Part shown: piece after piece, positions 15,001 to 18,000 of the stretch | How positions within the stretch are numbered: position 1 is the first letter of the stretch | How the letters are laid out: each line of letters starts with the position of its first letter | Assembly: GCF_053078305.1 (NCBI RefSeq) | Contig: NZ_CP166879.1 | DNA: 64,000 nt | Strand: one strand, 5' to 3' | Position numbers: made by a program

Positions 15001-18000
15001 CCGCCATGACATACGCTTTATATGCAGTAATTGCACCACCAAGACTTAACAGCGCATCACTTTGCGCCGCATCCGCCGTTGCCTCACCTTTGACAATCAA
15101 CTTCCCTTTCGGGTTAGTCAGCAGACCGCAGGTCATATCGTATTCGCCAGGCTGTAAATTCGCCGTCATTTTCTGGCTAAAACCAGGGGCGATATTTTCC
15201 CGCTCTTCCACCACCATCACGCCTTTGAGGATCTCCCACTCCAGCGCCTTCTGGCTATGGTTCTGAATAATGAACTGTGTTTTCCCGGCGTTAACCGTAA
15301 TGGTCATCGGTTCGCACTGTTTATCCGTCACGGTCACTTTGACTTGCGGAATATCAGCGGCGTTAGCCATAAAAGCAGAAGAGAACAGCGCAGCCACGCT
15401 CAACTGCAATGCGTTACGGCGGAAGTTAATGGTCATGACGAGACTATCCCTTTTAAGTATGTTGTAACTAAGCAAGAGTTTGCGTCGTATTTGCTACGCG
15501 GAGCGAGACGCTGTCGCCCCTGCACGTGGTGGCAGAGCAAACGCCACCAGCGCCGGGATGAGATAAATAAACCAGACGGCGACTTCGCTGACGCTCGGCG
15601 CTTCCTGATAACCAAAAATACCTTCCATTAGCGTGCCGAACAGCGAGTGAGTTGAGAGCACCGCGCTCATATCAAAGGCGATTTCCTGAAAGTGGTTCCA
15701 CAATCCGGCTTCATGAAATGCGCGAATGGCACCTGCAGCCAGCCCTGCGGCGACGAAGAGAATAAACAGGCTGGTCCATTTAAAAAATGCACCAAGATTG
15801 AGGCGAATACCGCCCCAGTAGAGCAGGAAGCCGAGCACCACGGCAGTAGCAAGACCGAGCATTGCACCCAGCGGCGGCCAGATCCCGACATCTTGTTGAA
15901 ATGCCGCCAGCAGGAAAAATACCGACTCCAGCCCTTCCCTTGCAACGGCAAAAAAGACCATCATCACCAGCGCCCAGCCATGATGATTTCCACGCTGCAA
16001 TGCGCTATCGACCGCCTGCTCCAGTTGCACTTTGACGTTGCGCGACACTTTGCGCATCCAGAAAACCATCCAGGTAAGGATCACCACGGCGATCACCGCC
16101 ACGATACCTTCAAACAGTTCCTGTTCTTTTTGCGGAAATTCGCCGGTGGTTTCGTTAATGAAGATACCCAAGCCCAGGCACAACGCAGCGGCAAACAACA
16201 CGCCAATCCACATCACACCAATCCATCGGCCTCGCTGGGTACGCTTAAGATAGCTGGCAATCAAACTGACAATCAGCGCGGCTTCAAGCCCTTCGCGCAA
16301 CATAATGAGAAATGGAACAAACATGCCACCCACCCTTAAACGTTTTTCTGAGTCAATCTATGCAAAGAAAAGTAAATCGCAGTGATAGCGATTATCATTA
16401 CGCTAAAGAAAAATACAAGCGGAATGTTTATAAAATGATGTTGGAATGTAAAAACGAGGACAACAAATCCGGAAACAAAAGCGATTATTTTAAGGTATTT
16501 AGCTAACTTTTCGCCCGGCAGATGAAGCTTGTACGAATGTTGGTGGCGACAAACTCGCTGCAGCGTGCCCGAAGGGTTGAATTTTCAGTTAGTCGTTTCA
16601 CAAAAGAACGTTGTTTTTTGCTTATTAATAGATAGTGATAAGGTTGTGAATGAAATTATACCTCATCTCCTCATCGAATTTTTTGCCCACAACCTAAACA
16701 GGAGAAAACGTGTATTTAAGTCTGGAATGAGCGATTTTTGATAGTGCGTAATTAACCCAAGAAATTATAATCCCCCTTATTATATGTCCAGTGATATCAT
16801 TTTATGGCTAAAGCTATATACAACTCTAAATCACGATAAAACGAAGCAGGATGCGCATTAAAAAAGTCATACATAATAAAAATAGAAATCTTAACCAGAA
16901 GTAATAGATCATCGTGAAAATCAATCACCAAAAACACCAACACACAAAAATCAATAAGTTAATAATTGTTCAGGACTTTTTGCTCACGATTTTTCTACTA
17001 TGACATTATCACAAACCCACTAGCATGAATACAGAAAGAGAAGTAATAAGATGAGACGCCACTGCTTTCAGATGAACCCTGTAATTAGGGTCGAGAATAT
17101 AATTTATCCATTCCCCTATCGATAAATTAAAAAATTTGCGTATTAATTTTTCTCTGACTGAAGGCTAACATCGAATTACCGACAAAATTCACGAGTGATT
17201 GTAACTACGTACTTTATGAAACACAGGAAGAAATTATTATTTACCGCGATAGTTCAAGGCGTAAAAAAAATAATAATATTCATGAAACTCATCCCGATGG
17301 CAGCATTGTAAATTCGCCAATAACTGGCATTCCTCCTGCTTTTTACGGGTGTTTCCATTAACACCAGAATGAGCGGATTGTTTACTACATCAAGAACGCA
17401 TCCGAAGTGTACATCCTGGTGCACTGACAGAATCACCCGGAGCCGTGCTGATGGCTACGACTTAATACGAATCATTAACCCTGTAAGGATACGGAGAGCA
17501 TGACATGAGACCACTATCCAACCTCAATACGAGCGCAGCAACCTATATTCCACCGCAGCAACTCCCGAGTAGTTGTCTGGAAACTTTGACGCTTCTGGTG
17601 CAGATGAATAATTATATCAAAAGGGATGCGGACTACAGCACGGGCATGGCTGTTACTCCACTGGTTCCAGAAGAGGTTCACTTGCTGGCTGTTGCCATGA
17701 CGACCGAACTGCATCGACATCAGTTCCAACCGGTGGTAAGTGCAAATGATCTGCAACTTCCTGAACCGTTCACCTTCGATGTTGCCGGTTTCACCATCAC
17801 CTTCACGAAGACGCAAGAGCATGACAACACGGGCAATCTCATGAAAATTGCAGTCAGCAAGAGCGGTGTGTGCACCAGTACAAATATTACTCTTGAGCTG
17901 TTTCACTCCATTGTCACAACCCTGATGTCACGCAGTCAATATGGAACCTTTGATCTCTGGTCCGTACGGCCAATACTCACGGATGAAAATCAAAACAGGG

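Follow-up and report, generated by a model that had tools for sequence, protein, structure and literature searches.

Does the efeU gene of this Escherichia coli chromosome encode a working iron permease, and how unusual would that be, given the broken copy of strain K-12? The locus lies in a 64,000-nt stretch of contig NZ_CP166879.1 (assembly GCF_053078305.1). This whole stretch is called the window below, and all positions are counted from its first nucleotide. In bacteria, the homologue of yeast Ftr1p is EfeU, a permease with seven segments that belongs to the oxidase-dependent iron transporter (OFeT) family. Its partner EfeB is a haem DyP peroxidase exported by the twin-arginine translocation (Tat) pathway, and EfeO is a periplasmic metal-binding protein. 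The window locus is in all probability an ordinary wild-type E. coli efeUOB operon, which would be functional and regulated by Fur. This reading is well supported indirectly, since the locus is nearly the same as those of O157:H7 and K-12, which others have studied. Function and Fur regulation are expected because EfeU matches its O157:H7 counterpart at 275/276 residues, efeO and efeB are intact, and the 130 bp upstream, including the Fur box, hardly differ from K-12 and O157:H7.

The efeU reading frame and its K-12 counterpart

The minus strand was translated from the ATG at 16324 to the TAG at 15496..15494. The frame holds 276 codons plus stop with zero internal stops, and motif search recovered two REGLE motifs. 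Both the intact gene and its pair of motifs had been claimed in the original prediction, and the coordinates agree exactly. The features concerned are:

15494..16324, minus strand: efeU, Ftr1/OFeT-family inner-membrane iron permease, 276 amino acids plus stop, intact
16283..16297, minus strand: first REGLE (REXXE) motif, amino acids 10-14, hydrophobic segment 1 (DNA CGC GAA GGG CTT GAA)
15926..15940, minus strand: second REGLE (REXXE) motif, amino acids 129-133, hydrophobic segment 4 (DNA AGG GAA GGG CTG GAG)
16218..16219, minus strand: GG of codon 36 (GGT), where K-12 MG1655 has a single G (nucleotide 106 of the coding sequence missing)

For comparison with K-12, the efeU locus was aligned with that of MG1655, where efeU (b4490, 830 nt) carries a pseudogene annotation. 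Identity was 98% over 1042 columns with a single indel inside the gene, a gap at column 263, where K-12 reads GGATT-GTGTG and the window GGATTGGTGTG. One G of codon 36 short, the K-12 frame hits a stop at codon 37; window efeU has neither the deletion nor the stop of this cryptic pseudogene. With the G restored, the K-12 gene gives a 276-aa protein that differs from window EfeU solely at residue 44 (L in K-12, F in the window). The frameshift is thus absent from the window, as had been predicted. A hidden frameshift or premature stop in the window gene was rejected, since the sole indel lies in K-12 and the O157:H7 and A16 proteins are of equal length.

For protein assignment, family models were searched with window EfeU. 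Pfam FTR1 (PF03239) spans residues 1-275 (E 1.8e-89, 300.3 bits against a cut-off of 25.3). The NCBIfam EfeU equivalog NF041756 gave 330.5 bits (cut-off 255) and TIGR00145 349.9 bits (cut-off 303.8). Hydrophobic segments were located by a Kyte-Doolittle scan over 19 residues, a crude method and not a dedicated topology predictor, and seven were found (1-24, 32-60, 68-94, 118-141, 146-175, 177-204 and 242-268). A sequence search of the PDB returned no EfeU/Ftr1 structure. Family models, motifs and segments together point to an EfeU/Ftr1 (OFeT) iron permease, for which transport activity is predicted. Strain A16, whose genome comes nearest to the window here (99.7% across the efeU region), has the identical protein as WP_000497935.1, and this exact sequence occurs on at least 1000 public contigs, labelled 'iron uptake transporter permease EfeU'. 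A GTG at 16333, three codons further upstream, would open a mechanical reading frame of 279 aa. It was not preferred as the start, because in RefSeq the closest genomes are annotated from the ATG matching 16324 and AAGGGTGGG stands just upstream of that ATG.

For the frequency of the intact state, a K-12 60-mer centred on the deletion was queried against complete E. coli genomes and matched in 5379 of 5426. Only 368 of the 5379 matched at 99% identity or more; the examples listed are K-12-derived laboratory strains (ER1709, CJ236 and an MG1655 derivative). The near-matches, as sampled, were 61 nt long and therefore carry the extra base. In ~93% of complete E. coli genomes efeU is intact; the broken copy of K-12 is the exception, a quirk of that lineage found mostly in laboratory strains. 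To describe the window gene as 'unlike K-12' makes it sound more special than is warranted, because the intact gene is the normal state. K-12 is a poor reference for the efeU locus. The strain difference was already published in 2006-2007: the K-12 frameshift and function in other strains are given in PMC2808357, where Grosse 2006 is cited, and in the title of Cao 2007 as it appears in PMC4746246 and PMC9174327. The observation made in the window is correct and ordinary.

The efeUOB operon and its expected role

The remaining two genes of the operon follow efeU on the same strand:

14309..15436, minus strand: efeO, periplasmic cupredoxin and M75 (imelysin) protein, 375 aa, starting 57 nt after efeU
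13032..14303, minus strand: efeB, Tat-exported DyP-type haem peroxidase/deferrochelatase, 423 aa, starting 5 nt after efeO

EfeO contains the Pfam domains Cupredoxin_1 and Peptidase_M75, covers the NCBIfam EfeO model over residues 1-375 of 375, and carries the motifs HRLE (HxxE) at residue 217 and GEEDRY at residue 278. It matched the solved E. coli structure PDB 7WGU with an E-value of 1e-229. EfeB contains Dyp_perox_N and Dyp_perox_C (Pfam), scored 617 bits with NCBIfam TIGR01412 and matches the solved E. coli structures PDB 2Y4F and 3O72. Its twin-arginine signal, SRRRLLK, is at residue 13, and D235, H329 and R347 are present. The tripartite layout of EfeUOB systems is therefore found complete, with efeU, efeO and efeB on one strand, gaps of 57 and 5 nt, and the diagnostic motifs of each protein.

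Under the published model, EfeO and EfeB would act as periplasmic partners of EfeU, binding and oxidising periplasmic Fe2+ and handing it to the permease for import. EfeU itself would be an inner-membrane permease of seven segments, the first and fourth of which each carry a REXXE motif, the family signature and presumed iron ligand. Import by this route would be most useful at low pH under aerobic conditions. Transport activity and substrate, like the responses to Fur and CpxR, are what near-identity to the O157:H7 and K-12 loci leads us to infer for the window. On these grounds efeUOB is to be counted among the iron-uptake systems of this genome, as a route useful at acid pH. Beyond correct annotation this carries little weight, as most wild E. 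coli have a working-looking EfeUOB.

The substrate is where the strongest alternative lies. EfeUOB may be functional with a main role other than import of free Fe2+, either haem deferrochelation by EfeB or Fe3+ uptake, and EfeU would then import the released iron. E. coli EfeB was reported to free iron from haem with the tetrapyrrole kept intact (PMC3577903), the same paper calls the preferred iron source of EfeUOB-type systems undetermined, and window EfeB retains the three residues and the Tat signal named above. The haem route, however, required a heterologous outer-membrane haem receptor (PMC3577903), and Cao 2007, as summarised in PMC9174327, described the E. coli system as an Fe2+ transporter active at low pH. 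Moreover, the two roles are compatible and sequence alone is unable to separate them. A main role in haem or Fe3+ utilisation is accordingly regarded as possible, though rather unlikely, and low-pH Fe2+ import is retained as the expected function.

The promoter region, the adjoining island and the prophage

For regulation, the region upstream of efeU was searched for binding sites, and two sites were found:

16384..16402, minus strand: Fur-box-like site CGTAATGATAATCGCTATC, matching the consensus GATAATGATAATCATTATC at 15/19 positions, 59 nt upstream of the efeU ATG
16362..16376, plus strand: CpxR-box-like site GCAAAGAAAAGTAAA (GTAAA-N5-GTAAA with 1 mismatch), found by pattern search, between the Fur box and the ATG

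A candidate Fur box ~60 bp upstream had been noted beforehand, and the first of these sites bears it out. No other site in the window matches as well. The window, K-12, O157:H7 and A16 share one identical sequence from this box through to the efeU ATG, and the CpxR-like site is likewise invariant in the four aligned strains. As would be expected of a member of the Fur regulon, efeU thus has a predicted Fur box in its leader/promoter region, at which Fe2+-Fur, ~60 nt upstream of the ATG, would repress efeUOB transcription if other strains are a guide. CpxR, at the adjacent GTAAA-type site, would probably modulate transcription too; efeU is listed as a RegulonDB CpxR target (PMC7657598). As a promoter we infer, as a candidate only, TTGTAT (16418..16413) and GATAAT (16396..16391) with a 16-nt spacer, the latter element overlapping the Fur box. 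A terminator-like match at 16393..16375 in a generic terminator scan was discarded as the Fur-box palindrome. An Rfam scan of the window gave no match near efeU.

Several observations weigh against an ordinary, Fur-regulated operon. F44 sits in the second hydrophobic segment of EfeU, where O157:H7 and repaired K-12 have L44. CpxR-type sites with one mismatch number 6 in the window against 3.4 expected, which is not significant alone. A generic scan for sigma-70 promoters gave no hit between the Fur box region and efeU. From ~130 nt upstream of the ATG, the window is entirely unlike K-12, because an accessory island replaces the K-12 sequence, and this could affect efeU regulation.

Two of these points can be read as an intact efeU frame in an impaired or silent system, either because of L44F or because silencing reaches the operon from the AT-rich acquired DNA that begins ~130 nt upstream of the ATG. 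The substitution is the one non-synonymous difference from an EfeU reported to be functional, and DNA of 31-36% GC does adjoin the promoter region. A leucine to phenylalanine exchange in a membrane segment is conservative, though, and the exact protein is the widespread one described above. Codon differences from O157:H7 are mostly synonymous (synonymous/non-synonymous: efeU 19/1, efeO 17/3, efeB 19/5), which indicates purifying selection on all three genes. O157:H7, whose EfeUOB is functional according to the literature, has the same island. Impairment of either kind is therefore considered very improbable. Still harder to credit is the idea that the Fur-box match arose by chance in AT-rich sequence and that efeU escapes direct Fur control in this strain: although block-shuffled windows hold 0.24 sites of 15/19 on average and ~20% of them at least one, so that the match takes its meaning from its location in an iron-transporter leader, it is the only such site in 64 kb, it falls exactly in the efeU leader/promoter region, it is conserved across the strains compared, and efeU and efeO belong to the Fur-2 iModulon of E. 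coli (PMC10164565). A working, Fur-repressed efeUOB operon remains the preferred reading.

While efeU itself holds nothing new, the adjoining island and a prophage are less ordinary. Along the window, the order on the E. coli chromosome is pgaABCD, phoH, efeBOU, the island, putP, putA, rutR, rutA-G, ymdF and the prophage. The island comprises:

16453..18995: accessory island (2.5 kb), replacing the 414-bp efeU-putP spacer of K-12
17505..18848, plus strand: orphan gene, open reading frame of 447 aa, divergent from efeU

The island is present in 645 of the 5426 complete E. coli genomes (~12%), including O157:H7, O55:H7, O145 and sequence type 69 (ST69), and its gene is always annotated as 'hypothetical protein'. 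A 78-bp remnant, 76% identical to 16503..16575, is left in the K-12 spacer. The efeU promoter region and the divergent orphan gene are separated by ~1.1 kb of AT-rich DNA (16450..17500, 31-36% GC), in which only small open reading frames reach 60 aa or more. This segment could act as a regulatory region, either common to both genes or subject to xenogeneic silencing.

The 447-aa orphan protein had no Pfam, NCBIfam or PADLOC match, and its close relatives are from E. coli only. Residues ~240-430, at the C-terminus, form three tandem repeats of ~62 aa. An exhaustive phmmer search found these repeats in many copies in proteins as long as 2136 aa, several of which have a SET domain, and the repeat region matches two PHROG families of unknown function. 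The named relatives are a 'SET domain-containing protein' of Salmonella bongori and of S. enterica subsp. indica. In S. bongori, the gene is flanked by an IpgD/SopB-family gene with its type III chaperone and by an NleG-family gene, in a neighbourhood of type III effector genes. An AlphaFold model of the repeat region, built from a 27-sequence alignment, is confident (pLDDT 91.7) and shows four short helices and a hairpin per repeat; the repeats look helix-turn-helix-like. An effector-like or DNA-binding protein is thus a lead, not a demonstration. That the orphan is an unrecognised secreted effector or DNA-binding regulator, and that the island alters efeUOB control in the strains that carry it, is judged unlikely.

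The prophage features are:

31928: ATG of wrbA, which is interrupted after 18 codons, at 31981, by the prophage
32487..40913, minus strand: LPD38-domain protein, 2808 aa
58975..61119: portal protein
61119..63612: terminase

The prophage runs from 31981 to the window end (64000) and resembles prophages of Shiga toxin-producing E. coli (STEC) genomes, being similar to Shiga toxin (Stx) phages. It also encodes tail fibres, an Ail/Lom-like protein and an N4-gp56-type capsid protein. If stx genes are present, they would be located beyond the window. The A16 genome, in other respects the closest, lacks this prophage.

On the far side of the operon, the efeB-phoH intergenic region (12987..13031) is an indel hot spot, where K-12 exceeds the window by ~80 bases and A16 by ~380. 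At the junction, the alignment blocks on either side both cover the same ~20 bp. The only Rfam match in the window, to Ysr251 (a Yersinia antisense small RNA family; 11728..11921, plus strand, 189 bits), lies antisense within the phoH coding region (11723..12787, minus strand).

Comparison with known iron-uptake systems

The closest studied counterpart, known from E. coli O157:H7 and Nissle 1917 as EfeUOB or YcdNOB (Grosse et al. 2006, Cao et al. 2007), has the same putP-phoH locus, gene order and gene lengths. Its nucleotide divergence from the window is ~2.2-2.5%. Protein identities are 275/276 for EfeU, 372/375 for EfeO and 418/423 for EfeB, so that L44 in O157:H7 against F44 in the window is the sole difference in the permease and few substitutions occur in its partners. 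Fur box and leader show no difference, and O157:H7 also has the accessory island upstream of efeU. In the literature, O157:H7 EfeU is reported as functional.

The efeU pseudogene of K-12 MG1655 (b4490) is orthologous, with ~98% nucleotide identity to the window locus. Upstream, the sequence from Fur box to ATG is shared without change, and from there to ~130 nt from the ATG only three positions differ. In K-12, an unrelated spacer of 414 bp stands where the window has the 2.5 kb island.

The more distant relative is the Ftr1p-Fet3p system (OFeT) of yeast. With Ftr1p, window EfeU shares a full-length FTR1 match, seven hydrophobic segments and two REXXE motifs (PMC9174327). The two systems differ in location and in partners: EfeU belongs to a bacterial inner-membrane system and is paired with EfeO (cupredoxin and M75) and a DyP haem peroxidase, whereas the yeast permease is paired with a multicopper oxidase.
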